Shown in pieces: positions 1-44,962 of a DNA stretch of 44,962 nt. Source of the stretch: a virus. Each line of letters starts with the position of its first letter. Position 1 is the first letter of the stretch. Under the pieces are notes generated by a model. It was not told the DNA's origin and did no database searches. It saw only the letters and a program-made list of their open reading frames with translations. The position numbers and the translations under genes were made by a program. The stretch lies in IMG/VR virus record IMGVR_UViG_3300020171_000010, positions 1 to 44,962 of that record, one strand, 5' to 3'.

Positions 1-112
1 GTGAAGTCTATTACTGATATTATTATTAATTTTTTTCTTTTAGAAAAGAGTTGGGCAAAATTATTTTATATCATTAGTCCAAAAGATGAGAAAGTGATAA
101 GAAAGTTAGCCT
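1..112. repeat. Terminal direct repeat, copy 1 (identical to 44851..44962). Interpreted as the circular-closure overlap or terminal redundancy.
   Basis: Base-by-base comparison shows 1..112 equals 44851..44962. An ORF reads continuously across the junction. Confidence 0.95.
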
Positions 113-5374: not shown

Positions 5375-5414
5375 GGCGACTTGGTGAGAAATCATCGGGT
5401 CGCCGTTTTTGTTT
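5375..5414 (+). terminator. Rho-independent terminator
   Basis: GGCGACTTGGTGA-GAAA-TCATCGGGTCGCC forms a 13-bp stem (with G-U pairs) capped by a GNRA loop. It is followed by GTTTTTGTTT. Confidence 0.7.
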
Positions 5415-5422
5415 GAGGAGAT

Positions 5423-5785
5423 ATGCCGGAAAATAAATTTGAGAAATACATTATGGGGGTAATTGAAAAATATATACCCATTCTATTATTGCAAAGGCAT
5501 ACATTTGAAGTGGAGAAAGGAACAGAAGACCAAAAATCTTTTATGGAGTGTGTGCCTAATTATCCCTATCTTAATGCAACATTAAAATATTCAAATGAGT
5601 GCGTTAAGGACTGGAAAAAAGGAAAAGATATTGTGCCTTACATTCTTCACGAAATGTGTCATCTTATTACAGAATCTTTATATGTAAAAGCTATACGTCG
5701 TTATAGCGGTAAAGATGAAATATTAGACGAACGAGAAAACTTGACTGATTTGATATGTAACATTGTTGTGAAAAATAAATTGTGA
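5423..5785 (+). CDS. Putative zinc metallopeptidase-like protein (HExxH)
   Basis: It has the ILHEMCHLITE motif (HExxH, SprT-like flavour). GAGGAG ribosome-binding site. Confidence 0.4.
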   Translation: MPENKFEKYIMGVIEKYIPILLLQRHTFEVEKGTEDQKSFMECVPNYPYLNATLKYSNECVKDWKKGKDIVPYILHEMCHLITESLYVKAIRRYSGKDEILDERENLTDLICNIVVKNKL

Positions 5786-5795
5786 GGAGGATTAA

Positions 5796-5840
5796 ATGCC
5801 TTGTGGAAAACATAAACGAAAAAGAAAAAAGAAAAGATAA
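5796..5840 (+). CDS. Possible 14-aa highly basic peptide
   Basis: Hand-translated MPCGKHKRKRKKKR, behind a strong TGAGGAGG ribosome-binding site. Confidence 0.25.
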   Translation: MPCGKHKRKRKKKR

Positions 5841-6004
5841 TGTTGAAAAAAAGAAAACTTAGTTTCAAACAATCAATGAAAGCATTGAAGAAAGCCGAAG
5901 AAGAATCATCTGGTGTTGTATTAAATAAGAACCCCCAGATTGCAAAATTAGAACTTGAGATGTTGACTATAGCGGAACGTGCTAAAACCGAGGGTATTCA
6001 ATGA
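5840..6004 (+). CDS. Hypothetical small protein (54 aa)
   Basis: Hand-translated MLKKRKLSFKQSMKALKKAEEE... The TAATG and ATGA junctions couple it to both neighbours. Confidence 0.4.
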   Translation: MLKKRKLSFKQSMKALKKAEEESSGVVLNKNPQIAKLELEMLTIAERAKTEGIQ

Positions 6005-8229
6005 TTAAAGATGAAGTAAAAGAGAAGCCAGAGAAACCTGAATCCACAGAAACCAAACAGGTTGCAGAGATAAAGTTTCAACCCGAATCAGATAAACTCA
6101 GTTCAGAAGAAAAAAAAGAAATCCTGAAGATTGTCAAGGCAGATGTTGAGTATGGTGAAGAAATCCAACTTGATTATGTCAAACAAAAAGAACTTGACCT
6201 CAAACATTACCATTGTGAGAAACCATCTGTCTTGGAAGATTTGCAGAAGAAACCCTGGCACTCTGACCGTAATTTAGGATTATCCCGCGCAATCGCTGAT
6301 TCATACCAGGCCACATTATTAGCCACTTGCTGGAATCCTGACTCAATTCATTATATAGCCACAAACACAATCGAAATAGATAACCGTGTCAATCAGGAGA
6401 AATTTACCAAGTGGGGTATGGGTAAACACGAAGCAAATGTCAAACCTGATATTGATGGGTTCATTCATAACCGTATCGTTGTAGGGGCTTCATTCTGTAA
6501 GATATACCGCAAGACCTGGGAAGAATGGGCTGATAAACGAATCCCCAAGAAGAACAAGAAAGGCGACACTACAGGTTTTGATATCAAGACCGATAAAGTT
6601 AAATTTACTAAAGGCATAATTGAGAACATCCCTGATATTGATGATATCCTTATTCCCGCATACGGCAAAAATGTCCAGGAACTTCCGTTTTTTATCCAGA
6701 TACTCCATTTAGACGGTGAGACAGTATTAGATTATATTGAACGAAAAGTATTTAAACCTGCCAATAAAGAAGAATACAAGAAAAAACTTTATAACCACGC
6801 ATTTGAGGATAAGAAACGCACTCTTGGCGAGGAAAAACTAAAAGCGCAAGGGATAACCGAATCAATGATTAATGATGCCGATGTGCGCAGAATCCCGATA
6901 GATTTATATGAATGGTACGGTTTTTATACCAAGAATAATAAGCGCGAACGGTATCGGTTTATCGTAGATTTAGTCAATGAAGAAGTGTTATCAGGTAAAC
7001 CTGTACGCAAGATTAATAGGTCAGGTAAGATACCATTTGCCGGTGGCGCATTATGCAAAGAACCCGGACAGATTAGAGGCACATCATTAATGCAGTTGAT
7101 AGCGCCGATAGTCAATGCATTTAATAATGTATTCAACCAGAAGTCAGATTTTCAATATGTTACCAACTGCCCGTTTGGATTCCATAACCCAGAGGAAGGA
7201 TACCAGAAACAGACTTATGAACTTGAACCCGGGGTATCATATCCTGTTGGCGGTGAACCTTCACGAAGCGTATATTTCCCGAACTTGCAACGGTCAATGG
7301 CTTGGGCTGAATCAGATATCCGGATATTGCTTGAAGTATTAGAACGGTTAACCGGCGCGGCATCATATTTTGCAATAAGCCAGCAACGGAATAAAACATT
7401 AGGCCAGGATTTATTGGTGGATAAAGCTTCTGAAACCAGGTTTAGTTTATGGGTATCGCGGATACAAGAAGATATAACTGAGGCAATAGGGATGTGGTAT
7501 GAATTATATCAAGACTTCCCGCCAAAAGGGTTAGCGGAACGAGTGGTAGGCGAAAACGGACAAAAACTATTCCCGAACTTATCGGTGAACACATTACGAG
7601 GTGATCCCAATGTTCAGATGACACCGGATACAGTCGCAGGGTCAAAGGCATACAGGAAACAGTTACAGTTATGGGCATTAGAATCTTCTCAAAATTGTAT
7701 ATGGCTCAACCCGCAATTAAACCCTCAAGGCAACTGGAATATGTGGTCTGATGGGTATAAGGAAATATTGGACTTGTCCGATAACGAAGTTGAACGATAT
7801 ATCGGTAAACAACCTAAATCGCAGTTTGATGAGAATGAATTAAATAATGAATGGTATAGATTCTTAAACGGCGAAGAATTTGACCCACCTGAAGGTGAGA
7901 CTGCATTAGCATTACAGCATTTACAGGGGCATATGAAACAGAAGGAAGAAAAATATCATCTACTTGATGAGGAATACAAGCCGAACTTTGATAGTCATTT
8001 ATTCAAGACTACTATAAATTATATGAAATTTATGAAGAATATGCAGAATGAACAGATTGCGGAACGAGTAGCCGCGAATATGATAATGAACCAGGGAGGT
8101 CAACCGCCAATGGGGGCAGGGAATATGCCTGTTCAATCGATGAACGCACAACCTGGCGCACCTGTGGCGCAACCAGGGGCAGTAAAACCGCCTATGCTGG
8201 GTGTGAATCCAGGAGGTCAAGTTGCATAA
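6001..8229 (+). CDS. Portal protein
   Basis: The 742-aa ORF lies between the terminase and the scaffold/capsid genes. It has a low-complexity Q/P/G-rich C-terminal tail. The call is from size and synteny only, with no motif. Confidence 0.7.
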   Translation: MIKDEVKEKPEKPESTETKQVAEIKFQPESDKLSSEEKKEILKIVKADVEYGEEIQLDYVKQKELDLKHYHCEKPSVLEDLQKKPWHSDRNLGLSRAIADSYQATLLATCWNPDSIHYIATNTIEIDNRVNQEKFTKWGMGKHEANVKPDIDGFIHNRIVVGASFCKIYRKTWEEWADKRIPKKNKKGDTTGFDIKTDKVKFTKGIIENIPDIDDILIPAYGKNVQELPFFIQILHLDGETVLDYIERKVFKPANKEEYKKKLYNHAFEDKKRTLGEEKLKAQGITESMINDADVRRIPIDLYEWYGFYTKNNKRERYRFIVDLVNEEVLSGKPVRKINRSGKIPFAGGALCKEPGQIRGTSLMQLIAPIVNAFNNVFNQKSDFQYVTNCPFGFHNPEEGYQKQTYELEPGVSYPVGGEPSRSVYFPNLQRSMAWAESDIRILLEVLERLTGAASYFAISQQRNKTLGQDLLVDKASETRFSLWVSRIQEDITEAIGMWYELYQDFPPKGLAERVVGENGQKLFPNLSVNTLRGDPNVQMTPDTVAGSKAYRKQLQLWALESSQNCIWLNPQLNPQGNWNMWSDGYKEILDLSDNEVERYIGKQPKSQFDENELNNEWYRFLNGEEFDPPEGETALALQHLQGHMKQKEEKYHLLDEEYKPNFDSHLFKTTINYMKFMKNMQNEQIAERVAANMIMNQGGQPPMGAGNMPVQSMNAQPGAPVAQPGAVKPPMLGVNPGGQVA

Positions 8230-8455
8230 AGATAATGTAAGCGATATTGGTGAATTAACTGCAATCAAATCTTCCTCTGCATTTGCCAGATTGCTTGAAG
8301 AAAGAAAAATATATTTACAAAGTCAAATCAATAGGTTTGTAAGAGAACAGAATTTAATCCAATCTTATGGTGAACTTTGTAAACTTGAGGATATAGATAA
8401 ACTTATGGAAATGGTTAATAAAACAATCGAAGAACTTAAAAAAGGAGGAAGTTGA
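8222..8455 (+). CDS. Hypothetical protein (TTG start)
   Basis: GGAGG lies 5 nt upstream of TTG at 8222. The product looks helical/coiled-coil. Confidence 0.5.
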   Translation: MHKDNVSDIGELTAIKSSSAFARLLEERKIYLQSQINRFVREQNLIQSYGELCKLEDIDKLMEMVNKTIEELKKGGS

Positions 8456-8456
8456 A

Positions 8457-8717
8457 ATGGCTAAAGAAATATCGGGACAAAGAGGAATCACATCACGGGA
8501 TAAGGGTGTTTTTATACCTTTGTCAGAACGAGTCCCTACACAACCGCAATATCTTCATATGAGTAAATCTCAGGTTGTTGAAGCGGAACGCAAACGTAAA
8601 GAAAAGAATCTTAGGTTAGCGCAAATAAGTATTGATATGGATAAAGAAATAGAAAACCAGGGTGAACCTGCAAAGACTGAAGTTAAAAAAGCGGGGAGAC
8701 CTAAAAAAACAGAATAG
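8457..8717 (+). CDS. Hypothetical basic protein
   Basis: 86-aa ORF with an AAGGAGGAAG ribosome-binding site. Confidence 0.55.
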   Translation: MAKEISGQRGITSRDKGVFIPLSERVPTQPQYLHMSKSQVVEAERKRKEKNLRLAQISIDMDKEIENQGEPAKTEVKKAGRPKKTE

Positions 8718-8811
8718 ATTTTAATACGTTTCCTGTGCTTACGATTAAAGCACTGGTAAAGAGGTTTCTTAATTTATCCTTAAAAATTATGGTTTTAACC
8801 AGGGAGGATTT

Positions 8812-9972
8812 ATGGAATTAAAAGTGGAAGATGCAAAAAAAGAACTTCAGGGTATGGTTGATGATACGAAATCTCAGGTTCAGAAAGAGAAGGATAAGGT
8901 GTTGCCTGCTGAAGAATTAAAAATTCTTGAGGAGAAACGCCAGAAAGATAAGGAAGCCACAGAGAATGCAAGGGTAGAAGCCGAGACGAAAGCCAAAGCC
9001 GATGCCTTAATCCTTACCAAAAAATCCGAAGAACTTTCTGAGGATGAGAAAAAACGTAAGGCGGAACTTGAGGAATCAAAACGTAAAGAGGAAGAATCTA
9101 AATTATCCGTAGAAGAAAAGTTAAAACGGGTAAAAGATGAATCCCAAAAACGGATTGATGAAGTCCTTAATGAAATGAAACAGATTAAGGATAAAAGTTC
9201 AAAGGAATTTGAAGGGTTGCAGAAAGAATTGCAAATACTTAAATCCCAGAACGAAGAACTCTCGAAACGCCTTTCCCAATCTCCTGCGGCAAAAGATGAA
9301 ACTGCCACAGAATTAAAGAAACTTGAATGGGAACGTATCACTAAATACCTTGAAGAAGATAAATCGTTGCCTCGTGAACAGCGCAAGGAAATGTCTGATG
9401 AAGAACTTGAGGAATGGATACTTGAGGATTTAACCCATGCGACAGTATGGATTAATCGCAGGGAAATCCGCAGGGTGCAGGAAACATATCAAGACCGCCA
9501 AGAGTTATCGACAAAGACCCGCGCTGGTGAAGTGATTAAAAAGCAACAGGAGTCTTTAACCAGAGTCCTTGATAAACACAAGGAACTCAATGATGTCAAT
9601 AGTGAAAAGGCAAAGATTTTTAATCAGATAATCAACGAGGATAAACAAAAGTTTTTGATGGCTGAAAACGGCCCGGAACTTGTGGTCGAAGAAATGGAGA
9701 AACGGTTAGCAATCAGTTCTCAACCTTCACAAACTGAAGAACAGAAACAGATTGAAGCACTTCAAAAGACGGTTGAAGAACTTACTAATACCATTCAAGC
9801 CATACAAAATCCTGACGACGAAGGCATCAATTCCACTATCCTAAGAAAAAAGTCGACCAGTAATGAACTCACTGAAGCCGAGCAAATTCTTATGGATACC
9901 ATGAAAGACCTTCCTGAAATCAATAAACAGGCAGCTCTCAAAAGTTATAGGGAGCGTATAGGGAAGAAGTGA
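8812..9972 (+). CDS. Putative scaffolding protein
   Basis: 386 aa, extremely K/E-rich with predicted coiled-coil character. It lies between the portal and the capsid gene. Confidence 0.55.
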   Translation: MELKVEDAKKELQGMVDDTKSQVQKEKDKVLPAEELKILEEKRQKDKEATENARVEAETKAKADALILTKKSEELSEDEKKRKAELEESKRKEEESKLSVEEKLKRVKDESQKRIDEVLNEMKQIKDKSSKEFEGLQKELQILKSQNEELSKRLSQSPAAKDETATELKKLEWERITKYLEEDKSLPREQRKEMSDEELEEWILEDLTHATVWINRREIRRVQETYQDRQELSTKTRAGEVIKKQQESLTRVLDKHKELNDVNSEKAKIFNQIINEDKQKFLMAENGPELVVEEMEKRLAISSQPSQTEEQKQIEALQKTVEELTNTIQAIQNPDDEGINSTILRKKSTSNELTEAEQILMDTMKDLPEINKQAALKSYRERIGKK

Positions 9973-9973
9973 T

Positions 9974-10156
9974 ATGCCCGATTTACGAAGTGATGACCAA
10001 TGTGGGTATTATACCTGTGGGAAATGTAAAGGCAGAATCCGGTATTTGATGACTGACGGTATGCTTGACCATTGTCCTCAGTGTGGTTATGGTCATGGTA
10101 TACGGGATGTTCACGATATTCCTTCCGAAATAAAATTAAACTTAAACGACCTATAA
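9974..10156 (+). CDS. Small zinc-ribbon protein
   Basis: Two CxxC pairs: CGYYTCGKC ... CPQCGY. Confidence 0.5.
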   Translation: MPDLRSDDQCGYYTCGKCKGRIRYLMTDGMLDHCPQCGYGHGIRDVHDIPSEIKLNLNDL

Positions 10157-10169
10157 GGAGGATATTAAT

Positions 10170-10634
10170 ATGAGGTATCAAACACATGGGTTTATACCCA
10201 TTTCGGCTCCACCGGCACGGCATACAAAACCTGCTGCTATAGTAAATATTGTCAAAGGAGATTATCTAATTGACGATACTACGGGATATGCGACTCAGAC
10301 AGCAACGGCGTTTGCTGTAGCTGGACTTGGTATTGCCGCTGCAGATTGCGACAATTCCGCCGGTGCTTCTAAAGGCGCCAAAAATGTCGAGATTTATCCG
10401 ATTGACCCACTTACAAGATACATCGTTCCAGTTGCTGCCAATGCATTAATCACACAGACTGCAATAGGGTTATTGGTTGATTTAGAGAATAATGATGACA
10501 TTGATATATCTGATACTACGATAGTGGCAGGATCATATGGGTTCTTCATCGATGATATTGATGTAAGTGCTGAGGCAATTGTGGCAAACGCTTATGGTTA
10601 TGCAATCGGTCATTTCCAAATGGCTCATGCATAA
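10170..10634 (+). CDS. Putative head decoration/auxiliary capsid protein
   Basis: 154-aa A/G/I-rich protein immediately upstream of the capsid gene, with a strong ribosome-binding site. The DUF2190-like impression is weak. Confidence 0.3.
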   Translation: MRYQTHGFIPISAPPARHTKPAAIVNIVKGDYLIDDTTGYATQTATAFAVAGLGIAAADCDNSAGASKGAKNVEIYPIDPLTRYIVPVAANALITQTAIGLLVDLENNDDIDISDTTIVAGSYGFFIDDIDVSAEAIVANAYGYAIGHFQMAHA

Positions 10635-10666
10635 TTATTACTAAAAATTAAGGAGGGAAACAAAAT

Positions 10667-11593
10667 ATGACACGCGCAGAATTACTCGATTTGTTTACGC
10701 CAATCTATGACCAGTTTGTCCAGATTGCGGCAGGAGGCGTTGATGTCAAGCATCCACAGTTATTCGATGAGGTGATTGACCCGACTAAGGATTACAAATA
10801 TAACGCTATATCTGGATTAGGAGCATGGGAAGAAGTAACTGAAGATAGCGAAGATGGGTTAGACCATTTCGTTATCGGATACGAAGGCACAATTACACCT
10901 GTTTATCTCCGCAAATACTTCTATGTATCATTTGAAGTAAACGAACAGATGGAATATGCTGCCTTGAAATCAAAGATAGGAAGAGCTGAAGCATTAGGAC
11001 GTGGCGGACAGATAAAACTCGAATTAAAAACCGCAGCAATAATGATTGCCGGATTTACGACTGCTTGTGCGGATGGCCAGATTCTTTACAGCAATTCGCA
11101 TCCCAAGAATCCTGAGGAAACAGCAACGACTTACGACAACTTGTTAGATAGTGCATTTTCTCATGACGCTCTTGAAACGGCAGAGAATCAAATATCAGAG
11201 AATTTCTTTGATATGGATGGTTCACCGATGGCTACTTTTGCAGGCAAACCAAAATTAGTGTTTCCACCTGCATTACGAGGACCGGTTAAAAGAGTTTTAA
11301 GTGAACGCGCAGTTGACCAACCAGGTACTACATTACGCAATATCAATGTTTATTCTGGTGAGTATGATCCTGTGGAATGGGCATATTTGGGTGCAAAATT
11401 AGGCGGCACAAATACCCAATGGCACATTATCTATCCAGGATTAAAGAATCTAAAACTTATCAAGAATAGTGCTGCTCCCCAATACGCATCTTGGATTGAG
11501 AATCTTAAACACAGGTATTACTTTGATGGGTGGCAATATGCAGAAGCAGGTGTAGTGGATTGGAGAGGTTTATTTGCCAGCACTGGAGTTTGA
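10667..11593 (+). CDS. Major capsid protein (HK97-fold expected)
   Basis: 308 aa with a strong AAGGAGGG ribosome-binding site. The call rests on its position after the scaffold and its typical size. Confidence 0.65.
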   Translation: MTRAELLDLFTPIYDQFVQIAAGGVDVKHPQLFDEVIDPTKDYKYNAISGLGAWEEVTEDSEDGLDHFVIGYEGTITPVYLRKYFYVSFEVNEQMEYAALKSKIGRAEALGRGGQIKLELKTAAIMIAGFTTACADGQILYSNSHPKNPEETATTYDNLLDSAFSHDALETAENQISENFFDMDGSPMATFAGKPKLVFPPALRGPVKRVLSERAVDQPGTTLRNINVYSGEYDPVEWAYLGAKLGGTNTQWHIIYPGLKNLKLIKNSAAPQYASWIENLKHRYYFDGWQYAEAGVVDWRGLFASTGV

Positions 11594-11598
11594 TAAAA

Positions 11599-12282
11599 AT
11601 GAATAGAGTTTGTCCATATTGTCATAAGGTTTATACGACTTGGCCCTGTAAATTAAAAAAGGGTTGGATGTTGTATTGTTCAAAACTATGTTCTTCACTT
11701 GCTCGCGGGAAAAGAAAAAAGAATAATTGTGAAATTTGCGGAAAAGAATTTATTTATTACGTGAGTTCACGCAATTCTTCTCGATTTTGTTCTCCAATAT
11801 GTGCTAATAAGAATGCAAGAGGCAAAGAGAAACCATCTATTCAAAAAGAAAATTCTCCGAATTGGAAAGGTGGTCATACTTTGATACAAAAAATCTGTTT
11901 AGATTGCGGTAAAAAGATTTATTATCGGTCTATCAGATGTCATTCTTGTAGTAAAAAGAGTGAATTGCATCCTCATTGGTTAGGAGGAATCGGTAAATTC
12001 CCGTATCCTTTTGAGTTTAATGATGAATTAAAAGATATGATAAGAGCAAGAGATAATTATAATTGTCAACTCTGTGGAATATCAGAAGAAGAGCATATTT
12101 TGATTAAAGGTATGCAACTCCATATTCATCACATTGATTACAATAAAGATAATTGTTTTGAGAATAATCTTATTTCTTTATGCCATCAGTGTCATGCACG
12201 CACTAATTACAATCGTGAACATTGGTCGTATAAACTAAATGATATTATTAGACAAACTAATTTAACCTATAAGGAGATGTAA
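11599..12282 (+). CDS. HNH homing endonuclease (class A: Zn-ribbon/NUMOD-like repeats plus a C-terminal HNH)
   Basis: NYNCQLCG...LHIHHIDYNKDN...NLISLCHQCHARTN, with PNWKGG and HPHWLGG repeats. ATG at 11599 lies just after the capsid stop. The track's 11530 start is an upstream extension. Confidence 0.85.
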   Translation: MNRVCPYCHKVYTTWPCKLKKGWMLYCSKLCSSLARGKRKKNNCEICGKEFIYYVSSRNSSRFCSPICANKNARGKEKPSIQKENSPNWKGGHTLIQKICLDCGKKIYYRSIRCHSCSKKSELHPHWLGGIGKFPYPFEFNDELKDMIRARDNYNCQLCGISEEEHILIKGMQLHIHHIDYNKDNCFENNLISLCHQCHARTNYNREHWSYKLNDIIRQTNLTYKEM

Positions 12283-12283
12283 T

Positions 12284-14467
12284 ATGAAATACTTAAAGTA
12301 TTTCCTTATGGCTCTATTCATTTTAATCACAACAGTGAATGGAGCCATAGCAGCAACCGATAGATATAATGATGGAGCTTGGAAAATTGATGCTACTGGA
12401 AATTTAGTTACTGTGGCTACTTCTAATTCTATCACTATCGGTGATTCAACACATTATCCCGCCTCGATATATTTAGGCGGGACAGGTAAATCATCCTGGG
12501 GTTCTATTGTTTCGCCCTGGGAAGATTCAGGCACGACAACCTTATTGACCTCAGCACCGACATACTTTATCCTGACGCATTCAAGTGGTAATTTATTTGC
12601 TTCAGGTGTTACAACAGGGTATGCTGGTGAAACATTTGTTAATGGGTTGACGATAACGGAGAATACTGATAATGCGTTAGTATTTACCGAGAACAGCGAT
12701 ACTTTGTCAATGAAATTTGATGGTTCAAGTATTGAGTTAGAAATACCGACAGGAACTGGACCATTATTGATTGACAACAATCACGCAACGGCTTCAGAGG
12801 CATCAGTCAACTTCGCATTAGGTGCGGATGATGATGATTACCTGCGTATCTCAACAATATCGAATGTTCCTAAAATTGATACTGTAGGCGGATGTAATCT
12901 TGATATTGTTCCTGCAGGTGGGACATTGGCGTTGACAGGGACATTGACAGCAAGTGTAGCGGTAAGTGCTGCGACTGTTCAGTCTAATGGTGATATCACC
13001 TTGCAGAACGGCGAATTGATAGGTAATAGCGGAACTGATATTGTTACCGTTACATCAAATGGCACGGATGCGACATTGAAAGTTATTAGCGCAGGTGATG
13101 AGTCAGATACTTATTTGTATTTGACTTGCGACAAGGACGATGATGCTGCTGATGACTGGATATTCAAATCCGTTGCATCAACCAACGCCTTGCAAATCAC
13201 TAATGGCGCGACAATGGTAGCTTCTATGGCAACAACTGGTGCGTTTACTTCCGCTGATATGACAATCATCGGCACAACTCCGTTATTGACTATTGGTGAT
13301 GCAGGAACCGAAGATAACGCAATCGTGTTTGATAATGTTTCGATGCCAGATTTTTATATCGGCTCGGATTATGATAACACAGTATTGGCTATCGGGACAG
13401 GTTCTACAATAGGCACGAACCAGATACTTGCAGTTACCGGCCCATCAGTAGTTATCATCGGAGATGGCGATACACAGGATAATGTTCTTAGGTTTGACCA
13501 GACTTCCGGTCCTGACTTGTATATTGCGGGTGATTACTCAACAGGTGCATTATCAATAGGTACAGGTGCGACAGTAGGGACAAACCAAATCTTGTCAGTA
13601 TCTGGTCCATCTATTGTTACAATTGGTGACGGAGACACGCAAGATAATGTTCTCGTTTGGGATGGTTCAAATGATTATTACATCGCAAACGATAATAGTC
13701 AGGCGATGCTACAAATTGGTACTGGTTCAACGGTCAATTCCAATGTATGTCTTACGGTATCCGGTCCGACAATCATCATTGGTGATGCAGACACGCAAGA
13801 CAATACGATATTGTTTGATGGCAATGACCACGATTTTTACATTGCCAACGATGTAAGTGCAAACTCACTTATTATCGGGTCAGGGGCAACCGTTGCGACA
13901 ACTCCGATATTGACTCTTGACAATGCGATGAATGCGACGTTCTCCAATAGTTTGACTGTTAATGGTATATTAACCGCGACAAAAGTTTCGGTTATGCCAT
14001 TACCAATTTACAGTATGCTTTCGACTGCTGCGACTGTATTCACATCATCAACAACTCCGATATTGACGGCAACGAATAATTCGGTAGCATTATACTGGAT
14101 GGATAACAACACATCTGCTGCAACCATAACGTTCAGAGTGCCTGACGACTTTTATTCAGGCGGGGCGTTTAGGGCTGTAGTTGATTGTATCTCAGCATCT
14201 TCAGTGCAACCAGCGATTGACTATTCGGTATATGTCAACGGTGATGGTGGAACATATGATAGTGCTGTTACAGATCAGACACCCGCGATATTAACAAGCG
14301 GACATTCAGGAACTCCTGAAACAGTTACATTATCAGTAACGACTGATTTCGCAACTATTCAGGCCGCAAGTTATGTTACGGTTAATGTTTGGAGAGATAA
14401 CGTAAGGGCAAGTCCAGCGTATCTCACATTGTATTATCTTGAGTTCTACTATACATCGAGGAGTTAA
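12284..14467 (+). CDS. Tail fibre-like protein with an N-terminal signal peptide and internal tandem repeats
   Basis: N-terminus MKYLKYFLMALFILITTVNGAIA|AT. It contains four ~55-aa repeats and is S/T/G/D-rich. Confidence 0.6.
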   Translation: MKYLKYFLMALFILITTVNGAIAATDRYNDGAWKIDATGNLVTVATSNSITIGDSTHYPASIYLGGTGKSSWGSIVSPWEDSGTTTLLTSAPTYFILTHSSGNLFASGVTTGYAGETFVNGLTITENTDNALVFTENSDTLSMKFDGSSIELEIPTGTGPLLIDNNHATASEASVNFALGADDDDYLRISTISNVPKIDTVGGCNLDIVPAGGTLALTGTLTASVAVSAATVQSNGDITLQNGELIGNSGTDIVTVTSNGTDATLKVISAGDESDTYLYLTCDKDDDAADDWIFKSVASTNALQITNGATMVASMATTGAFTSADMTIIGTTPLLTIGDAGTEDNAIVFDNVSMPDFYIGSDYDNTVLAIGTGSTIGTNQILAVTGPSVVIIGDGDTQDNVLRFDQTSGPDLYIAGDYSTGALSIGTGATVGTNQILSVSGPSIVTIGDGDTQDNVLVWDGSNDYYIANDNSQAMLQIGTGSTVNSNVCLTVSGPTIIIGDADTQDNTILFDGNDHDFYIANDVSANSLIIGSGATVATTPILTLDNAMNATFSNSLTVNGILTATKVSVMPLPIYSMLSTAATVFTSSTTPILTATNNSVALYWMDNNTSAATITFRVPDDFYSGGAFRAVVDCISASSVQPAIDYSVYVNGDGGTYDSAVTDQTPAILTSGHSGTPETVTLSVTTDFATIQAASYVTVNVWRDNVRASPAYLTLYYLEFYYTSRS
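13289..13921 (+). repeat. In-frame tandem repeat, four units of about 49-55 aa
   Basis: Units begin TIGDAGTEDN, IIGDGDTQDN, TIGDGDTQDN and IIGDADTQDN. Each continues ..FD....D.YIA.D.....L.IGTG.T.G.NQIL.V.GPS. Confidence 0.85.
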
Positions 14468-14478
14468 GTAAGAGATAT

Positions 14479-14525
14479 AGATAAGGGGTGGGGGTAATTC
14501 CTCACTCCTTATCTAAATTTATTTT
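14479..14525 (+). terminator. Strong hairpin / terminator-like element
   Basis: AGATAAGGGGTG pairs with CACTCCTTATCT in a stem of about 12-15 bp including G-U pairs. It is followed by AAATTTATTTT. Confidence 0.5.
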
Positions 14526-14529
14526 AAGT

Positions 14530-15702
14530 ATGAAAGAAATTAAATTAAAATTAGTAACATTTATTGTGTTGTTAATAGGTGCATTAGGTTTTACACCTGG
14601 TCTTCTTCCTTTTCGTTTAGGCGAAGAACTGATGTCGCAGTTGGCGATAGTCCTATTTATCGCCATATTTTATATCAAGAACAGATGGATTGGAGTATTC
14701 TTGTTATGGAATATCGTAAGGTTTTATCTCGGCATAAACAATATGTCGATTTGGACGATACATACAACCATATTTTATGTGGTATTATATCAAATGTTGT
14801 TTGACAAATTTAACAAAAATAATATAGACATAATCCTCGACGGTATATGCCTTGTGGCGATATACCAAGTCTGTTCAATGACCTTGCAATTTATGGGAAT
14901 ATGGGTGCATATAATCCCATTGACGTTAAAAGACGGCGGAACGTTTATTACATTTTTTAGCAGGACAAAATTCTCGATGACACTTGTAGATAATATCCCA
15001 TATTACTGGTCAACATTAACAGGGTTTACAAGTAATGTGACTATGGCATCTGGATTATTAGCGATGTGCTTGCCTGCGTTTTTCAGGAAGAAATGGTATC
15101 CGGGAATAATCCTTGTGGTAATAGGGTTATTAATGGCAAAAGCGATGTCGGGGATAGTTGCGGCGATAATCATAAGCACTATATACATTTGGGTATCTCA
15201 TTCTAAAATACGGTGGCAAACAATATCTGTATTATTGGCAATGTTTATCACATATATTTTGATAAGCGAGAACCACGAACAACTGTTAAACGGAAGTGGC
15301 AGATGGGAAACTTGGAGATTTATAATAACTAAACTCATTCCAAAACGGTGGATTATCGGATGGGGCGTAGGTCAAGCACCGGCATTATGGCCGATAATCT
15401 CTAAAGAAACGTCGTTTAAAGGAATCGCCTGGATACACGCGCATAATGAGTATATAAACCTATGGCTTGAGTATGGGGTCATCGGGTTTGTTATTGGTAT
15501 GGGGTATGTATTCACTCTGGTTAAAAACGGCTTTATAAATATTACAAAAGATAAAACTAAACTACTTATATTTCTTGGTGCGGTATCGGGATTACTTAAC
15601 TGTATGGTGAGTTTCCCTCTGCACGTTACGATAGGATTTATGTTAGTAGTATATTTAGCGATATTAGATAAATTAAATAAGGAGGAACAATGCGTAAATT
15701 AA
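14530..15702 (+). CDS. O-antigen ligase / Wzy_C-family polytopic membrane protein (WaaL, Wzy or PglL-like)
   Basis: About 10-12 hydrophobic segments. Hallmark motifs are SGRWETW, IIGWGVGQ and HAHNEYINLWLEYGVIGFV (the H.HN.yL...E.G.iG box). No Shine-Dalgarno sequence precedes ATG 14530. The track's alternative start at 14488 lies inside the hairpin. Confidence 0.8.
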   Translation: MKEIKLKLVTFIVLLIGALGFTPGLLPFRLGEELMSQLAIVLFIAIFYIKNRWIGVFLLWNIVRFYLGINNMSIWTIHTTIFYVVLYQMLFDKFNKNNIDIILDGICLVAIYQVCSMTLQFMGIWVHIIPLTLKDGGTFITFFSRTKFSMTLVDNIPYYWSTLTGFTSNVTMASGLLAMCLPAFFRKKWYPGIILVVIGLLMAKAMSGIVAAIIISTIYIWVSHSKIRWQTISVLLAMFITYILISENHEQLLNGSGRWETWRFIITKLIPKRWIIGWGVGQAPALWPIISKETSFKGIAWIHAHNEYINLWLEYGVIGFVIGMGYVFTLVKNGFINITKDKTKLLIFLGAVSGLLNCMVSFPLHVTIGFMLVVYLAILDKLNKEEQCVN

Positions 15703-16139
15703 TTTTAGGGTTAATGATTTTAGGATTATTCGTATCAAATGCGTTTGCGTATATGGGAACTACAACAGTGGTTGCCAGCGATACTTCGACTGATATTCTC
15801 GTGACTACCGCAGCGACGGTTTATACCCATTCGTTTATAATGAGATCTAAAGACCCGACGATGATGACTTATTCTTATCTTATCACATCGGAAGGTGGCA
15901 CACCCAATGTTAATATACAATTCCAACAATCGGTTAAAGAACCGACCACAGAAGGTGCAAGTGATACATATTGGTCGGAACCTATTGGAGTAAAAGCTAT
16001 TGTTACAGGTGAAACTTCCGAATCTTTGCAACAAGCTACTTTTGACACAGTAACATTACCTTATGGTAGATTTATAATTAACGAAACCGGATCGTCCACA
16101 GAAACCACGGTAAATCTCTGGGTAACAAGTATGGAATAA
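15690..16139 (+). CDS. Secreted beta-rich protein (signal peptide)
   Basis: N-terminus MRKLILGLMILGLFVSNAFA|YMG. T/S-rich, with an AAGGAGGA ribosome-binding site. Confidence 0.6.
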   Translation: MRKLILGLMILGLFVSNAFAYMGTTTVVASDTSTDILVTTAATVYTHSFIMRSKDPTMMTYSYLITSEGGTPNVNIQFQQSVKEPTTEGASDTYWSEPIGVKAIVTGETSESLQQATFDTVTLPYGRFIINETGSSTETTVNLWVTSME

Positions 16140-16153
16140 AATAAGGGGTGAAT

Positions 16154-16501
16154 ATGGGCAAATCAAAATTCTTAAAACCCGATATAACCACATCGCAGAA
16201 TTTACTCAATGGGGCATTGTCCTATACTACGACACTCACACAGGCGTTTCAGTTAGAGGAAATACATTTTCATTTTTCGGAGAATGTAACCGAAACAATC
16301 ACAATAATATTAGATTCAATACACGGTGATAATTATGATACGGTATTAAGAACAATCAATCTTAATGCCGAAGATGATGCGGTATATCGTCCGCCGGTAA
16401 AAGTAAATTATGCCGTAGGCGACCAGATAAAAATACAATGCACACAAGCAAATCTTGCAGGTATTGTTTATGCAACTATTAAAATTTCAGAACCGTCGTA
16501 A
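16154..16501 (+). CDS. Hypothetical beta-rich protein
   Basis: ORF 16148..16501. ATG at 16154 follows AAGGGG. No signal peptide. Confidence 0.55.
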   Translation: MGKSKFLKPDITTSQNLLNGALSYTTTLTQAFQLEEIHFHFSENVTETITIILDSIHGDNYDTVLRTINLNAEDDAVYRPPVKVNYAVGDQIKIQCTQANLAGIVYATIKISEPS

Positions 16502-16513
16502 CCAGGAGGAAAT

Positions 16514-17377
16514 ATGGAATTGAAAGACATTGCAAAATTGGAAGAAGAAGTAAAAATAAAACAGGCAAGATTCGTCGAGTTGAATAAAGAATATGACGGG
16601 TTGTTCAACAAGAAACTGGATTTATTAAAAGAGATTATCAGTATTGATAATAAACGCAAAAGCGGGGCGGATAAACTAAAAGAAGTTAATGATACCATTT
16701 CTAAGTTAAATGAGGAAGTAAGGAAAAAGAAAACTGAATTGACTGCCGTAACCAAAGATTCCGACAATAAGATTGCGGAAGTTCAGGATAAGATAGACGA
16801 ATTGAATAAGGTATCAATCGAGATTGCCGATAAACAACAGGCATTAGACAGGGATACCGCAACCCAAAAAGAACAGAAGATAGAATTGAGTAGGGGTTCA
16901 GGTGCAATAGAACGAGCGAGATTTGAACTTGACAAGCAAAATGTGGTATTAAAAGAAAAAGAGAAAATGTTTGACTTTAAAAATAAATCATTGAATTCGG
17001 AACGCGAGGATATCGCAAAGAAACAATCCGAACATGAAAATACCACAGTCAGACTTGTTGCGTTATCAGACCAGTTGGAAACGAAGAAAAAAGAGTTAGA
17101 TGAGAAACAGTCCGAACTAAATGTGCTTAATCTTAATATAACGAATAAACAAAAAGAGATTGAAGCACTAATAGAAGAATTAAAGAAAAAGATTAGTGAA
17201 GCCGTATTAGCCAAGAAGTCAGCGGACTCATTAGCCGAAACACTTGAACGATCCATCGGTAATTTGCAGAACAGGGAAGATTTATTAAAAGTCAGGGAAT
17301 TAAGGTTTACAAAATTACTTAATGAGAAACTAACCAAAGAAGAAATTGAAAGATTAGAAAAATCGTTAGCTAAATGA
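16514..17377 (+). CDS. Coiled-coil protein
   Basis: 287 aa, K/E/L-rich with heptad-like character throughout. GGAGGA ribosome-binding site. Confidence 0.6.
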   Translation: MELKDIAKLEEEVKIKQARFVELNKEYDGLFNKKLDLLKEIISIDNKRKSGADKLKEVNDTISKLNEEVRKKKTELTAVTKDSDNKIAEVQDKIDELNKVSIEIADKQQALDRDTATQKEQKIELSRGSGAIERARFELDKQNVVLKEKEKMFDFKNKSLNSEREDIAKKQSEHENTTVRLVALSDQLETKKKELDEKQSELNVLNLNITNKQKEIEALIEELKKKISEAVLAKKSADSLAETLERSIGNLQNREDLLKVRELRFTKLLNEKLTKEEIERLEKSLAK

Positions 17378-21155: not shown

Positions 21156-21346
21156 TAGGCAAGAATTATTGTTACTATTTAGAAAAGAATTGTAGATTAA
21201 AAAGTGAGTGCTTATTTATAGATTATTGTCCGCATAAGAAGGCAAGAGAGAATTACGAGGAGAGTCATAAAATAATACCGTAGGAGGGGTGATGGGAATT
21301 GTAAAATTAGAGGATGGAAATATAATTATTGACAAAAGGATATAAT

Positions 21347-21982
21347 ATGCCTTCAGGTATTTATCCACATAAATCAAGAACAGAGGAGACAAAGAGAAAA
21401 ATTAGTAAAGCTATTATGGGACATCCACTATATAACACTGGCAGAACGCATTTTAAGAAAGGCCTTATCCCTTGGAATAAAGATAAAAAATACCCTCAAT
21501 TTTCTAAAGAAAATCATCCTAATTGGGGTAAAAAAGCTTCAGAAGAAACAAGACAAAAATCATCAATTTCTCATAAAGGACAAAAATCTTATATGGAAGG
21601 CAAACATCATACAGAAGAAACAAAGAAAAGATTAAGTGAATACTGGAAGGGGAAGCGAATAGGAACACAACATCCTAATTGGCAAAATGGGAAATCCTTT
21701 GAACCATATTCTTTAGATTTCAATGACGAGTTAAAAGCAGAAATTAGAAAAAGAGATAATTATATTTGCCAGAATTGTAATATGACTGAGGAAGAACATC
21801 TAATTGTTTATGGAGATGTTCTTTATATTCATCATATTAATTACAATAAAAAAGATTCTGATGAAGACAATTTGATAACTTTATGTAATTCTTGCAATGC
21901 AAGAGCAAATTTTAATAGGGATTATTGGAAAAATTATTATTCATCAAAGAGAGTTTGTAATGGGGTCAATCAAAATAAATAA
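21347..21982 (+). CDS. HNH homing endonuclease (class A)
   Basis: NYICQNCN...LYIHHINYNKKD...NLITLCNSCNARAN, with HPNWGKK and HPNWQNG repeats. ATG at 21347; the track's 21329 start is TTG. Confidence 0.85.
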   Translation: MPSGIYPHKSRTEETKRKISKAIMGHPLYNTGRTHFKKGLIPWNKDKKYPQFSKENHPNWGKKASEETRQKSSISHKGQKSYMEGKHHTEETKKRLSEYWKGKRIGTQHPNWQNGKSFEPYSLDFNDELKAEIRKRDNYICQNCNMTEEEHLIVYGDVLYIHHINYNKKDSDEDNLITLCNSCNARANFNRDYWKNYYSSKRVCNGVNQNK

Positions 21983-32087: not shown

Positions 32088-32297
32088 ATGAAAGAACTTA
32101 TCAAGCAATTCATTGAGGCAATTATTAAAGAGTGGGTTAAAGCCAGGACAGTATTTACCCTTTTATTTTATATAACTTTTCTATACTTGATATTGAAAAA
32201 AATAGAAGTTCCACCAGAATTGAATACGATTATATCCACACTATTCGGTTTCTGGTTTGGTCAACGGCAATCTAACAAAAAGGAGGAAGTAAAATGA
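32088..32297 (+). CDS. Holin-like protein with two transmembrane segments
   Basis: 69 aa with two hydrophobic segments and a charged C-terminus (QRQSNKKEEVK). Confidence 0.4.
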   Translation: MKELIKQFIEAIIKEWVKARTVFTLLFYITFLYLILKKIEVPPELNTIISTLFGFWFGQRQSNKKEEVK

Positions 32298-32710
32298 AAA
32301 GGATAATGTCAGTTTTAGCATTGATTTTGGCAATGGCAATCCCAGCTATGGCGATGGCTCAGGAAAGTTTATCTATAACCGATATGGTTAAACGGATTCC
32401 GAATCTCAAACAGGGATTTGGTTATTCTTTTATTGACCACGATTTCGGGTATCTTGCCACGGTTGAATTGGCGAAATGGAAAGATATATCGTTTGAAGCC
32501 GGATACAACTGGAAAAATAAGGCAATCGGGGTTATTAGTTATGATTTTTTTAAGTTAAAGGATTTTGGGGTTACATTACCTATCTTAAATTTGGTGGGAT
32601 GTAAATTAGGAGTTTATGCCGGCTATGGCAGGATTGATTTATTACAAGGTGGCGGGAATCAAGAATTTGACTATGGTGCCAGTGCGACTATTTTAGAGAT
32701 AAAATTTTGA
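32294..32710 (+). CDS. Small outer-membrane beta-barrel-like protein
   Basis: Signal peptide MKRIMSVLALILAMAIPAMAMA|QE. The body has alternating amphipathic strands. The C-terminus ...ATILEIKF resembles an outer-membrane-protein beta-signal ending in Phe. Confidence 0.5.
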   Translation: MKRIMSVLALILAMAIPAMAMAQESLSITDMVKRIPNLKQGFGYSFIDHDFGYLATVELAKWKDISFEAGYNWKNKAIGVISYDFFKLKDFGVTLPILNLVGCKLGVYAGYGRIDLLQGGGNQEFDYGASATILEIKF

Positions 32711-32718
32711 GGTGAAAG

Positions 32719-33030
32719 ATGGTTACTAATATTGTCCAACCGGTTAAACACGCAATATTTCGTGCCTTCTCAGTATTTTGTGTTTTCTTGGTAATTGGTT
32801 TGCTTGGTTTGGGAGTTAAACGACTATTGTATCCACCCAAAACCGAAAGTTATGCTCAGACTATTCAAGCGGGCGGGGTGAATTACAATATTGAAATTTA
32901 TAATCCCCAAGATACATTTTTTCTCGGTCTGCATATTTTCGGGTTTAAGTTAGGCATTACTAAACCGACAGTCAAGAAGATAAACGATATTACTGCGGAA
33001 TTAAAACCTATTCAACCGGTGAAGAAATGA
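32719..33030 (+). CDS. Signal-anchored membrane protein
   Basis: 103 aa with a single N-terminal transmembrane segment, FSVFCVFLVIGLLGLGV. Confidence 0.5.
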   Translation: MVTNIVQPVKHAIFRAFSVFCVFLVIGLLGLGVKRLLYPPKTESYAQTIQAGGVNYNIEIYNPQDTFFLGLHIFGFKLGITKPTVKKINDITAELKPIQPVKK

Positions 33031-33084
33031 TTAAGCATACACTTTTGTTAATTATCTTGGCTTGTATAAATATATAAAATAACT

Positions 33085-33112
33085 TGATATTCATATCCAC
33101 CAATGCTATACT
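33085..33112 (+). promoter_or_regulatory. Sigma70-like promoter upstream of an HNH gene
   Basis: TTGATA-16 nt-TATACT, 20 nt upstream of the AAAGGAGGA ribosome-binding site. Confidence 0.5.
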
Positions 33113-33131
33113 TATTATAGTAAAGGAGGAT

Positions 33132-33707
33132 ATGATGAAAAAGAAATGTTTATGGTGTGGAAAAGAAATACAAACTTGCAGATGTTTAAAGGATAGAAAA
33201 AAATTTTGTTCTAAAGAATGTTTATATAATTTTAAAAAAGGAAAGCATTATTCTCTCAAAACAGAATTTAAAAGAGGCGAACATCCTTCTCCGAAAACTG
33301 AATTTAAAAAAGGCGATAATCTTGGTAAAAATCATCCTCGCTGGAAAGGTGGTCGCCATAAATTAAAAACAGGATATATTCAAATATATGCCCTTGGACA
33401 TCCAAGAGCTTATAAGAATTTTGTATATGAACATATACTTATTGCCGAAAAAAAATTAGGCAGATATTTATTAACTAATGAAGTCGTTCACCATCTTAAT
33501 GGCATTAAAGATGACAACAGGGAAGAAAATATAGTGGTTTGTCAAAGCGATAAAGAACATTTTAAAAATCATAGATTAAAAACTTGGTCAAGAAAATATG
33601 ATAGATGTAGAAAGTGTGGAACAACAAAAATAAAACATGAGGCAAGAGGACTTTGCCAAAATTGTTATAAATATTACCAAAATCATAAAAAATTATGCGA
33701 ATATTGA
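33132..33707 (+). CDS. HNH homing endonuclease (class B, HNH_3-like)
   Basis: TGYIQIYALGHPRAYKNFVYEHILIAEK...EVVHHLNGIKDDNREENI, with the HPRWKGG repeat and Zn-ribbon CxxC pairs. Paralogous to the gene at 22292..22822. Confidence 0.85.
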   Translation: MMKKKCLWCGKEIQTCRCLKDRKKFCSKECLYNFKKGKHYSLKTEFKRGEHPSPKTEFKKGDNLGKNHPRWKGGRHKLKTGYIQIYALGHPRAYKNFVYEHILIAEKKLGRYLLTNEVVHHLNGIKDDNREENIVVCQSDKEHFKNHRLKTWSRKYDRCRKCGTTKIKHEARGLCQNCYKYYQNHKKLCEY

Positions 33708-34604: not shown

Positions 34605-34729
34605 GTAATTAGATAGAAAGGAAAAAGTGAATATCCAGATAGGCGGTGATAATAGATTTAAAGGCGAAGTTAAGGCGAAAGCCTTAGACCGATTCACCGT
34701 CGGCCTGGAGCTTCGCCTTTTTTATTTTT
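34605..34729 (+). ncRNA. Candidate promoter-proximal structured small RNA (~125 nt), unclassified
   Basis: It is bounded by the promoter and a terminator. The outer helix is AAAGGCGAAG/CTTCGCCTTT, enclosing AAGGC-GAAA-GCCTT (GNRA loop). An alternative CGGTGA/TCACCG pairing is possible. No convincing ORF. Confidence 0.5.
34660..34729 (+). terminator. Rho-independent terminator with a branched stem
   Basis: A 10-bp helix (34660..34669 with 34711..34720) is followed by TTTTATTTTT. Confidence 0.65.
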
Positions 34730-35649: not shown

Positions 35650-36261
35650 ATGCCTAAATTCCTGCGCATCAAACATAAAAATAACCCCCGCTGTTCAAAA
35701 CTCAGATTATTTTGGATGAGAGTCCTTTTAAGTCTGGGTTTTTTTCTTTGCGCGCAGGCAGAGGCAGCGGGGCCTAAATCAACTAATCCCTTACCTGCGG
35801 ATAATTCTGACCCAAGTGTCCAATCAAATCCTCGCACCTTGCGGGGCCCATTAGACACCTCCTTTTTACAGGCGAAAAAAAAGATGCCTGGCTATTCGCG
35901 GGTAGGGGTTATTGATTTAGACATAATCGCCACCATCGAATCATCAAACAATCCTATGGCGTATAATCCCAAAAGTGGGGCAAGAGGATTGTATCAGATT
36001 ACCCCGATTTGTCTAAAAGATTACAATAGCCAAAATACCCCCCAAATCGCCCCTACACGCCTTTTTGACCCCTTTATCAATAAACAGGTGGCTAAATGGT
36101 ATTTAACGCAACGTATACCCCTATTCTTGCGAAATAAAGGCATTCCTATAACGGTTGCCAACATTCTTTGGTGCTATAACGCAGGGATAGGTAATCTATT
36201 AAAAAGAAAAATACCAAAAGAAACCAGGGATTATATTGCTAAATACAGGAGATTACAATGA
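35650..36261 (+). CDS. Secreted lytic transglycosylase (SLT domain)
   Basis: Signal-like N-terminus ...MRVLLSLGFFLCAQAEAAG. SLT motifs are IESSNNP (catalytic E-S), GLYQIT and CYNAGIGN. Confidence 0.85.
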   Translation: MPKFLRIKHKNNPRCSKLRLFWMRVLLSLGFFLCAQAEAAGPKSTNPLPADNSDPSVQSNPRTLRGPLDTSFLQAKKKMPGYSRVGVIDLDIIATIESSNNPMAYNPKSGARGLYQITPICLKDYNSQNTPQIAPTRLFDPFINKQVAKWYLTQRIPLFLRNKGIPITVANILWCYNAGIGNLLKRKIPKETRDYIAKYRRLQ

Positions 36262-39141: not shown

Positions 39142-39218
39142 TATGCTATTTATGCGGAGAAGAAACCAATATAAAAGAAACCGATTATGAAGATCGTAAT
39201 TATCTAAAAATATGTTGA
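39138..39218 (+). pseudogene. Possible truncated zinc-ribbon gene fragment (26 aa)
   Basis: Hand-translated MICYLCGEETNIKETDYEDRNYLKIC. It resembles the start of ORF 40104..40289 (IICWYCKKEFEY...Y.D) on the other side of the HNH gene. Confidence 0.25.
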
Positions 39219-44842: not shown

Positions 44843-44962
44843 ATGAAATAGTGAAGTCTATTACTGATATTATTATTAATTTTTTTCTTTTAGAAAAGAG
44901 TTGGGCAAAATTATTTTATATCATTAGTCCAAAAGATGAGAAAGTGATAAGAAAGTTAGCCT
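44839..44962 (+). CDS. 5' part of the junction-spanning ORF (continues at 113..180 of the circle)
   Basis: ATG at 44839 follows GGAGGAGAG and overlaps the upstream stop (ATGA). The frame is open to the window end. Confidence 0.6.
   Translation, partial: MNEIVKSITDIIINFFLLEKSWAKLFYIISPKDEKVIRKLA
44851..44962. repeat. Terminal direct repeat, copy 2
   Basis: Identical to 1..112. Confidence 0.95.

Follow-up and report, generated by a model that had tools for sequence, protein, structure and literature searches.

A phage-specific Wzy_C-type enzyme gene coupled to a gene for an exported fibre-like protein

What might a Wzy_C-type membrane enzyme do among the late genes of a phage? The question is raised by the IMG/VR virus record IMGVR_UViG_3300020171_000010, analysed here at its whole length of 44,962 nt (the window), in which a 390-aa protein of this type is encoded at the boundary between head and tail genes. 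To our knowledge, Wzy_C genes of phages are known only as seroconversion cargo of temperate phages, and only bacteria are known to glycosylate proteins by means of Wzy_C-type oligosaccharyltransferases. The original prediction for this locus, made from the letters alone, offered two answers: alteration of the host surface, or glycosylation of the exported phage proteins encoded on either side. The gene proves to be nearly always coupled to an upstream gene for an exported protein, and for that reason glycosylation of the neighbouring phage protein is favoured here. That the enzyme is a dedicated O-oligosaccharyltransferase whose cognate acceptor is encoded immediately upstream is a reading that, on sequence comparison, we hold to be about evenly balanced between right and wrong.

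The enzyme gene and its upstream partner

The pair comprises the following features.

12284..14467, + strand: partner gene, closing the head operon; product an exported, fibre-like protein of 727 aa (from translation and from homologues upstream of Wzy_C genes)
12284..12352, + strand: predicted Sec signal peptide of the partner, MKYLKYFLMALFILITTVNGAIA then A (ATD); cleavage site placed by eye and approximate
13916..14464, + strand: conserved C-terminal domain of the partner, residues ~545-727, all-beta sandwich or jelly-roll (from homology, AlphaFold2 (AF2) and Foldseek)
14530..15702, + strand: Wzy_C-type membrane enzyme, 390 aa, ~12 transmembrane helices, no Shine-Dalgarno (SD) sequence (from translation, Pfam and AF2)
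15085..15087, + strand: codon of R186, in the motif CLPAFFRKKW; candidate equivalent of R215 of Escherichia coli WaaL and R224 of Neisseria meningitidis PglL
15268..15465, + strand: predicted periplasmic catalytic loop, residues 247-312, with R258, GWGVGQ (residues 277-282) and HAHN, which contains H305
15301..15303, + strand: codon of R258, in the catalytic loop
15442..15444, + strand: codon of H305, in the catalytic loop (HAHN)

In every close relative, the gene directly upstream of the enzyme gene encodes a homologue of the C-terminal ~180 aa of the 727-aa open reading frame (ORF). Of the 33 locus records with a Wzy_C match, several of which duplicate one contig, 27 have a match to a profile of this partner domain in the ORF that immediately precedes the Wzy_C gene. 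Across ~25 distinct phage contigs with readable upstream DNA, pairing with an upstream signal-peptide gene is near-constant. The paired loci include distant enzymes with 21-28% identity to that of the window, and P0164 and P0100, chosen as representatives at the family's far end, likewise have the partner domain upstream, in phage contexts. Four more distant loci (L016, L028, L031 and L034) carry a different upstream protein of 155-182 aa, in which a signal peptide is present. Phages whose head genes are unrelated retain the pair (Head-tail_con with Phage_capsid_2, and SU10_portal with Phage_capsid_4), and in L017 and L018 it lies at a different genomic position, after a methyltransferase and away from the head genes. 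Pairwise identities of enzyme and partner co-vary (r=0.79 over 153 pairs, uncorrected for phylogeny), and the partner is the sole predicted signal-peptide protein in 11 of the 15 related loci surveyed. That the pair appears to move as a unit between phages is counted in favour of a functional link between the two proteins.

A search of 5.8 billion proteins returned seven relatives of the enzyme, one identical and the others with 34-76% identity, all bearing a precomputed Wzy_C domain. An exhaustive profile search yielded 141 clusters (50% identity) at E<=1e-30, 931 at E<=1e-10 and 6,535 matches at E<=1e-3, the last grading into general Wzy_C; the family representatives in the library are the best 150 matches, all within this Wzy_C family. 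The contigs encoding relatives are all phage structural or late regions, and the context of a lipopolysaccharide (LPS) core (waa) locus is absent from all loci examined. Two motif scans covering 185,579 species genomes of bacteria and archaea, with confirmation by tblastn, turned up no member of the family (alignments A3 and A4, which are broad, were too diverse for pattern scans of collections), and tblastn of the enzyme against 50,697 GenBank phage records, D3-type Wzy-beta phages included, gave no match. Neither PHROG nor NCBIfam has a family for the enzyme, and NCBIfam has none for its neighbours. The enzyme is classified as a member of a phage-specific Wzy_C subfamily tied to a new exported acceptor or partner domain.

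The Wzy_C assignment is borne out. The Pfam model that the original prediction had named as a check (Wzy_C, PF04932) matches residues 193-322 with 42.7 bits against a gathering score of 31.7 (E=6.2e-11), and the three motifs that it had recognized lie at residues 256-262 (SGRWETW), 275-282 (IIGWGVGQ) and 303-321 (HAHNEYINLWLEYGVIGFV). The secondary structure of the AF2 model consists of ~12 long helices and a motif-bearing loop (residues 247-306), in agreement with a hydropathy scan; from homology, the loop is predicted to be periplasmic. A GTG at 14488 was considered as the start and rejected, since it lies inside a hairpin stem and the homologues align from the ATG at 14530.

Across 130 full-length representatives, R258 is conserved in 128, H305 in 129 and R186 in 122; G277/G279/G281, N306, E314, G316, F362 and H365 are also near-invariant. 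Profile comparison with the PDB gave two meaningful matches, an oligosaccharyltransferase (9rmk, 610 aa, E=1.4e-4) and the WaaL ligase of Cupriavidus (7tpg, E=5e-4). In these alignments R258 corresponds to R265 of 7tpg, and H305 to H313 of 7tpg and to H349 of 9rmk, the histidine of its HSHN motif, which is numbered 349 in N. meningitidis PglL as well. Essential residues are R215, R288 and H338 in E. coli WaaL and R224, R298 and H349 in N. meningitidis PglL (PMC3643930), and the histidine requirement of Wzy_C-type transferases is also described in PMC9829042. The spacing from R186 to R258 to H305 is 72/47 residues, compared with 73/50 in E. coli WaaL (PMC3643930); R186 was placed by this spacing, its alignment being weak, and is probably retained as the WaaL/PglL-type arginine. 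The alignment of R258 and H305 and the spacing of the three residues together give the enzyme a catalytic make-up of the ligase or oligosaccharyltransferase type.

The partner is composed of a signal peptide (residues 1-23), a long repetitive region rich in Gly, Thr and Asp, and the conserved C-terminal beta-sandwich. In all nine short homologues inspected (217-322 aa), the N-terminus combines a K/R n-region with a hydrophobic core and an AxA-type site. Both the length and the sequence of the N-terminal parts are variable, the versions in L010, L035 and the window being long and repetitive; Tandem Repeats Finder detected no DNA-level tandem repeats in the 727-aa gene, the repeats of the protein having diverged. 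The C-terminal domain shares 39-45% identity with the partners in other phages. Its AF2 model is an all-beta sandwich with a predicted local distance difference test (pLDDT) score of 75 overall and ~88 in the core. Foldseek matches in the PDB comprise carbohydrate-binding modules of families CBM15, 6, 16, 29, 61 and 86, gingipain adhesin domains, lectins and the Klebsiella K2-2 tailspike (E of 1e-4 to 1e-3, with modest TM-scores), and those in BFVD comprise the C-terminal parts of collagen-repeat fibres of giant viruses and of tail fibres and spikes of Klebsiella phages (E of 2e-7, TMq <=0.6). The domain has no Pfam or PHROG family; among 12 partners compared with PHROG, one weakly matches 'virion structural protein' (E=8.5e-4) and nothing is consistent.

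An [ST]-x-P motif in an S/T/A-rich stretch of the partner domain is near-invariant (28 of 30 sequences; FTSSTTP in the window), alongside conserved QTP and G[ST]PE loops. Sites of PglL lie in a loose Ala/Pro-rich context (PMC8423747), which the [ST]-x-P motif suits as a candidate glycosylation site. This loop answers to the PglL-type sequon that had been proposed as a test. A terminal or Cys-flanked sequon, as in the acceptors of TfpO, TfpM and PglS, was not found: the partner C-termini are variable (…YYTSRS, …YYNE, …YYD, …ILEP), lacking both a conserved S/T at the end and a pair of Cys residues. The Bacteroidota sequon D-[ST]-[AILVMT] was also tried as acceptor motif and rejected, being unconserved among the partner-domain homologues.

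Terminator, expression and genomic setting

Between the two genes lies a hairpin.

14478..14515, + strand: intrinsic-terminator-like hairpin, 17-bp stem and 4-nt loop, the most stable 46-nt hairpin in the 45-kb window
14516..14526, + strand: U-rich tail of the hairpin

The hairpin that the original prediction had placed before the enzyme gene is real and stronger than the 12-15 bp then claimed, with a folding energy of -27.9 kcal/mol (z=-6.3; 0 of 200 shuffled sequences fold as well). The sole other strong terminator-like hairpins with U tails lie at 5375..5404 and 34673..34718, the latter followed by U6AU5. Because such hairpins stand at 5375..5404 and 14478..14515, the head genes (5423..14467) form a block that is closed by the partner gene. 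The enzyme gene is the first after the head-operon terminator, where the head operon gives way to the tail genes, rather than embedded in a fibre module as had been proposed. The main terminator of phage T7, T-phi, follows gene 10 (major capsid), a layout that the present hairpin resembles. At the same intergenic position, L002, L017, L019 and L020 have hairpins without sequence homology to it, with T-runs in at least L002 and L019. As a side observation, the three strong hairpins split the genome into early or small genes with TerL, the head operon, and a tail and lysis block.

Upstream of the enzyme ATG the sequence reads cttatctaaatttattttaagtATG, with no SD sequence, and in L002 and L019 the ATG of the enzyme homologue also lacks one. 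The missing SD had been noted correctly, but the gene is not exceptional in this respect: in a census of 53 window genes, ~22 have an SD core of at least 5 nt and ~21 have none. The partner gene has a strong SD (AAGGAG). The hairpin and the missing SD are better explained as a head-operon terminator followed by weak translation of a membrane enzyme than as a special regulatory device. On the simplest reading this is a matter of stoichiometry, with a strong SD and head-level transcription giving much exported protein and the polytopic enzyme remaining scarce.

Downstream of the enzyme gene lies a further ORF.

15690..16139, + strand: 149-aa ORF, phrog_28213 (unknown function), with a signal peptide and an S/T-rich N-terminus

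It overlaps the enzyme stop by 13 nt, has a strong SD (AAGGAGG) within the enzyme 3' end, and begins with a Sec-type signal peptide (MRKLILGLMILGLFVSNAFA then Y). The signal peptides that had been claimed for both neighbours of the enzyme are therefore present as Sec-type N-termini of the 727-aa and 149-aa ORFs. Homologues of the downstream ORF in L005 (11112-11510) and L020 (8287-8694) start ~18 residues later, without a signal peptide, and the signal peptide in the window looks like a lineage-specific addition to an ORF that is not a conserved member of the module. Glycosylation of the neighbouring exported proteins, as originally suggested, is accordingly narrowed: the upstream protein is the favoured substrate candidate, and the downstream one is not a conserved partner. 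Further downstream, an ORF at 16148..16501 (117 aa) is conserved in L002-L004 with 42% identity, and one at 16514..17377 encodes a highly charged, coiled-coil-like protein of 287 aa; L002-L004 have at the matching place a 295-aa ORF with a similarly charged N-terminus.

Tail proteins of tailed phages are normally without signal peptides. At least 11 ORFs in the structural and tail half of the window begin with Sec-type signal peptides, starting as follows.

12284, 15690, 17374, 19085, 19513, 24005, 26287, 26809, 27577, 32294 and 35650: starts of signal-peptide ORFs

They include a 770-aa match to the PHROG 'internal virion protein', a 460-aa DUF5123 protein and an SLT transglycosylase. Many of the signal peptides end in C-[FY]-[AGS], several then being followed by Q or E; a Q after the cleavage site recalls the 'Q-rule' of Bacteroidota, yet the genome uses strong AGGAGG sites. 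The trait is shared by L019 (7 such proteins) and L034 (4), and most other module loci have the partner only. In the lineage of the window, the enzyme could serve several exported phage proteins.

An exact 112-bp direct terminal repeat at 1..112 and 44851..44962 indicates that the genome is complete, at 44.85 kb; the repeat reflects either a circularly permuted genome in assembly or a true direct terminal repeat. All window genes lie on a single coding strand. Those recognized include TerL, an SU10-like portal, the major head protein, an SLT transglycosylase, ERF and YqaJ recombination genes and Dam; no tRNA genes were found in the window. The absence of an integrase noted in the original prediction holds: among 38 scanned ORFs, including all of at least 170 aa, there were zero Pfam matches to an integrase, recombinase or repressor, and the phage is apparently lytic. 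Megablast of 10 kb of window DNA against GenBank phages gave no match, the nearest TerL relatives have <34% identity and come from mixed hosts, and the capsid gave just two weak matches. In L002, TerL comprises 788 aa compared with 429 aa in the window, with a faint LAGLIDADG match, which suggests an intein or homing insertion.

Four HNH endonuclease genes are present, one with NUMOD3 motifs.

11530..12282: HNH endonuclease gene separating the major head gene from the partner gene; the longest ORF overlaps the 3' end of the former
21329..21982: HNH endonuclease gene
33084..33707: HNH endonuclease gene
39212..40153: HNH endonuclease gene

A probable lysis region (32088..33030 and 35650..36261) encodes small membrane proteins of 69 aa and 103 aa, a 138-aa signal-peptide protein and the SLT-domain transglycosylase, whose N-terminal segment is hydrophobic or signal-like. 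This region suggests a diderm host.

Proposed mechanism, related systems and alternatives

In the proposed mechanism, the upstream gene would yield an abundant Sec-exported fibre-like protein, the C-terminal beta-sandwich of which would be a dedicated acceptor or recognition handle. The 390-aa Wzy_C enzyme, in the inner membrane, would take a host-made undecaprenyl-pyrophosphate-linked glycan (Und-PP-glycan) and move it en bloc to Ser/Thr of the partner in the periplasm, by a mechanism of the WaaL/PglL/TfpO type. The enzyme gene would be reached by read-through only, past the strongest terminator of the genome, and would be translated from an SD-less, A/U-rich leader. As a result, substrate would be plentiful and the polytopic enzyme, which could be toxic, scarce.

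Such nearly constant coupling is what genomes show for dedicated O-oligosaccharyltransferases, TfpO, TfpM and PglS among them (PMC3643930, PMC9829042). In TfpO-PilA and TfpM-pilin the transferase gene directly follows that of the acceptor, PglS adjoins ComP, and PglL homologues stand beside their targets in 21 of 31 cases (PMC3643930, PMC9829042). With TfpO/PilO of Pseudomonas, TfpM of Moraxellaceae and PglS of Acinetobacter, the window enzyme shares a Wzy_C domain with the essential histidine, a polytopic inner-membrane character and an exported acceptor, here a candidate; with TfpO and TfpM it also shares the upstream acceptor-candidate gene in the same orientation, a similar size and the lack of a PglL_A motif (PMC3643930, PMC9829042). 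The acceptor candidate differs from theirs in having a signal of the signal peptidase I type and a beta-sandwich in place of a prepilin leader and a pilin fold, and neither the C-terminal Ser/Thr used by TfpO and TfpM nor the disulfide-flanked loop used by PglS. Moreover, those enzymes are bacterial, whereas this module is encoded by apparently lytic phages.

PglL (Neisseria, Burkholderia; 9rmk) provides the best PDB match and shares with the window enzyme the histidine H305/H349 and the elements R-x3-W and P-x2-G-x-G. However, PglL has ~600 aa, PglL_A (PF15864) and PglL_B motifs and many targets, whereas the window enzyme has 390 aa and neither motif. WaaL (7tpg/7tpj of Cupriavidus metallidurans; E. 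coli) is similar in length, number of helices (~12), R258/R265, H305/H313 and GxGxGQ, and the E. coli enzyme in the spacing of its R/R/H triad (PMC3643930). WaaL is encoded in LPS core loci, unlike the window enzyme, and needs no exported partner; its acceptor is lipid A-core, and the similarity amounts to 22 bits. Wzy_C membrane proteins are likewise encoded by phages D3 and phi297 (Pseudomonas) and VarioGold (Variovorax), the last with signal-peptide or transmembrane genes near its Wzy_C gene (PMC9658991). Those phages are temperate and carry the gene as a moron beside integrase or lysis genes, in contrast to the late block here; the VarioGold gene runs opposite to the late genes and is thought to be active in lysogeny, whereas the window gene lies on the same strand as the late genes. 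The window family has no detectable similarity to these phage genes, and its conserved partner differs from those of D3 (Iap and Oac). Literature searches directed at phage-borne Wzy_C genes or exported phage proteins yielded no description of such a module.

Several observations weigh against a dedicated oligosaccharyltransferase and its acceptor. The PglL-specific motif PF15864, a search for which had been proposed at the outset, has no match in the enzyme at E<=0.01. In a hand-extended alignment with 9rmk, the equivalents of H400, E404 and P406 of PglL are N357, S361 and P363, of which P363 matches P406 and is itself unconserved. The PDB profile scores are equally weak for PglL (24 bits) and WaaL (22 bits), and given these scores and the undetected PF15864, a protein acceptor and a lipid A-core or glycan acceptor are inseparable by sequence. 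For the enzyme, AF2 yielded a poor model (pLDDT 61.6 with 7 sequences), whose Foldseek matches in the PDB, all at E>1, were discarded. The partner is not a type IV pilin, the sole acceptor class known for dedicated O-oligosaccharyltransferases; with its fold resembling carbohydrate-binding modules, it could bind a glycan rather than receive one, and its [ST]-x-P motif could be purely structural. Its domain is slightly better conserved than the enzyme, which suggests that the partner has a function of its own. Finally, the reading presumes a suitable Und-PP-glycan donor in the host.

The same data can be read as remodelling of the host surface, which we regard as doubtful. The enzyme would then act late in infection as a WaaL-like ligase or Wzy-like polymerase on host LPS, capsule or another glycolipid, masking or destroying the receptor so that superinfection is excluded or progeny are spared adsorption to debris, and the exported, lectin-like partner, rather than serving as acceptor, would be a glycan-binding subunit for specificity or chain handling. 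Wzy_C is indeed common to ligases and polymerases, WaaL 7tpg and the oligosaccharyltransferase match equally well in the PDB, the size of 390 aa with ~12 helices is WaaL-like and not PglL-like, the partner domain matches carbohydrate-binding modules and lectins in fold, and phage Wzy_C genes that alter O-antigen are known in D3, phi297 and VarioGold (PMC4815439, PMC9658991). Those cases, however, are temperate morons near an integrase and expressed in lysogeny, whereas this genome is complete, has no detected integrase and carries the enzyme gene in the late structural block, on the same strand; together with the lack of similarity to any GenBank phage protein, this agrees with the original view that the gene is not classical temperate seroconversion cargo. 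Moreover, WaaL or Wzy needs no co-inherited exported protein, and a lectin for host glycans should diversify, yet it is the C-terminal domain that is conserved (39-45% identity) and the N-terminal part that varies.

A special case of the oligosaccharyltransferase reading makes the partner a virion fibre, routed through the periplasm solely for glycosylation and joining the particles at or after lysis, so that virions would carry host-type glycans; we consider this improbable. A head fibre would be the most likely form, because the partner gene closes the head operon: it lies after the capsid gene and before the terminator, and would be co-expressed with the head proteins. Fold matches in BFVD to viral collagen-repeat fibres, tail fibres and tailspikes, and the long repetitive, fibre-like N-terminal parts of the partners in the window, L035 and L010, also fit. 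Tailed-phage particles assemble in the cytoplasm, however, and we know of no virion protein of a tailed phage that is exported before assembly. No structural PHROG is matched consistently, and the pair is not beside head genes in L017 and L018. Fibres usually conserve the N-terminal end by which they attach, whereas the partner begins with a cleaved signal peptide followed by a variable region. An unlinked origin, with the Wzy_C gene as an accessory moron at a post-capsid insertion hot spot and a functionally unrelated neighbour, is already disfavoured, and we judge it very improbable. The site after the major capsid gene is the position of the main terminator in T7, and an HNH homing endonuclease has inserted just upstream (11530..12282); but the two genes are adjacent in ~25 distinct contigs at 21-76% identity, in varied positions and with varied head-gene families, and the divergence of the two proteins is correlated.

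Significance for phage biology

The module is new in being phage-specific, located in a late block and tied to one exported fibre-like protein; exclusion, decoy, camouflage and decoration are candidates for its purpose. If the host surface is remodelled, the pair would give lytic phages a late-expressed means of exclusion or of preventing readsorption, in which the lectin-like subunit would be new. A wider form of the oligosaccharyltransferase reading, which we think unlikely, is a lineage-crossing module by which lytic phages hijack host lipid-linked glycans: a phage oligosaccharyltransferase would coat an abundant, exported trimeric fibre in the periplasm late in infection, and the glycosylated fibres would be displayed on virions or on the surface of the dying cell. 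It would be the first phage-encoded protein glycosylation of the en bloc oligosaccharyltransferase type, with a new non-pilin acceptor domain; it would imply camouflage by host glycans or receptor masking, and would offer a compact pair of enzyme and sequon for bioconjugate engineering. Should the two proteins be a true oligosaccharyltransferase and acceptor, glycoconjugate technology would gain a small enzyme together with a new acceptor domain, the pair would raise questions about camouflage of the virion or cell surface, and it would mean that phages exploit the periplasmic glycan pool of the host to modify their own proteins.

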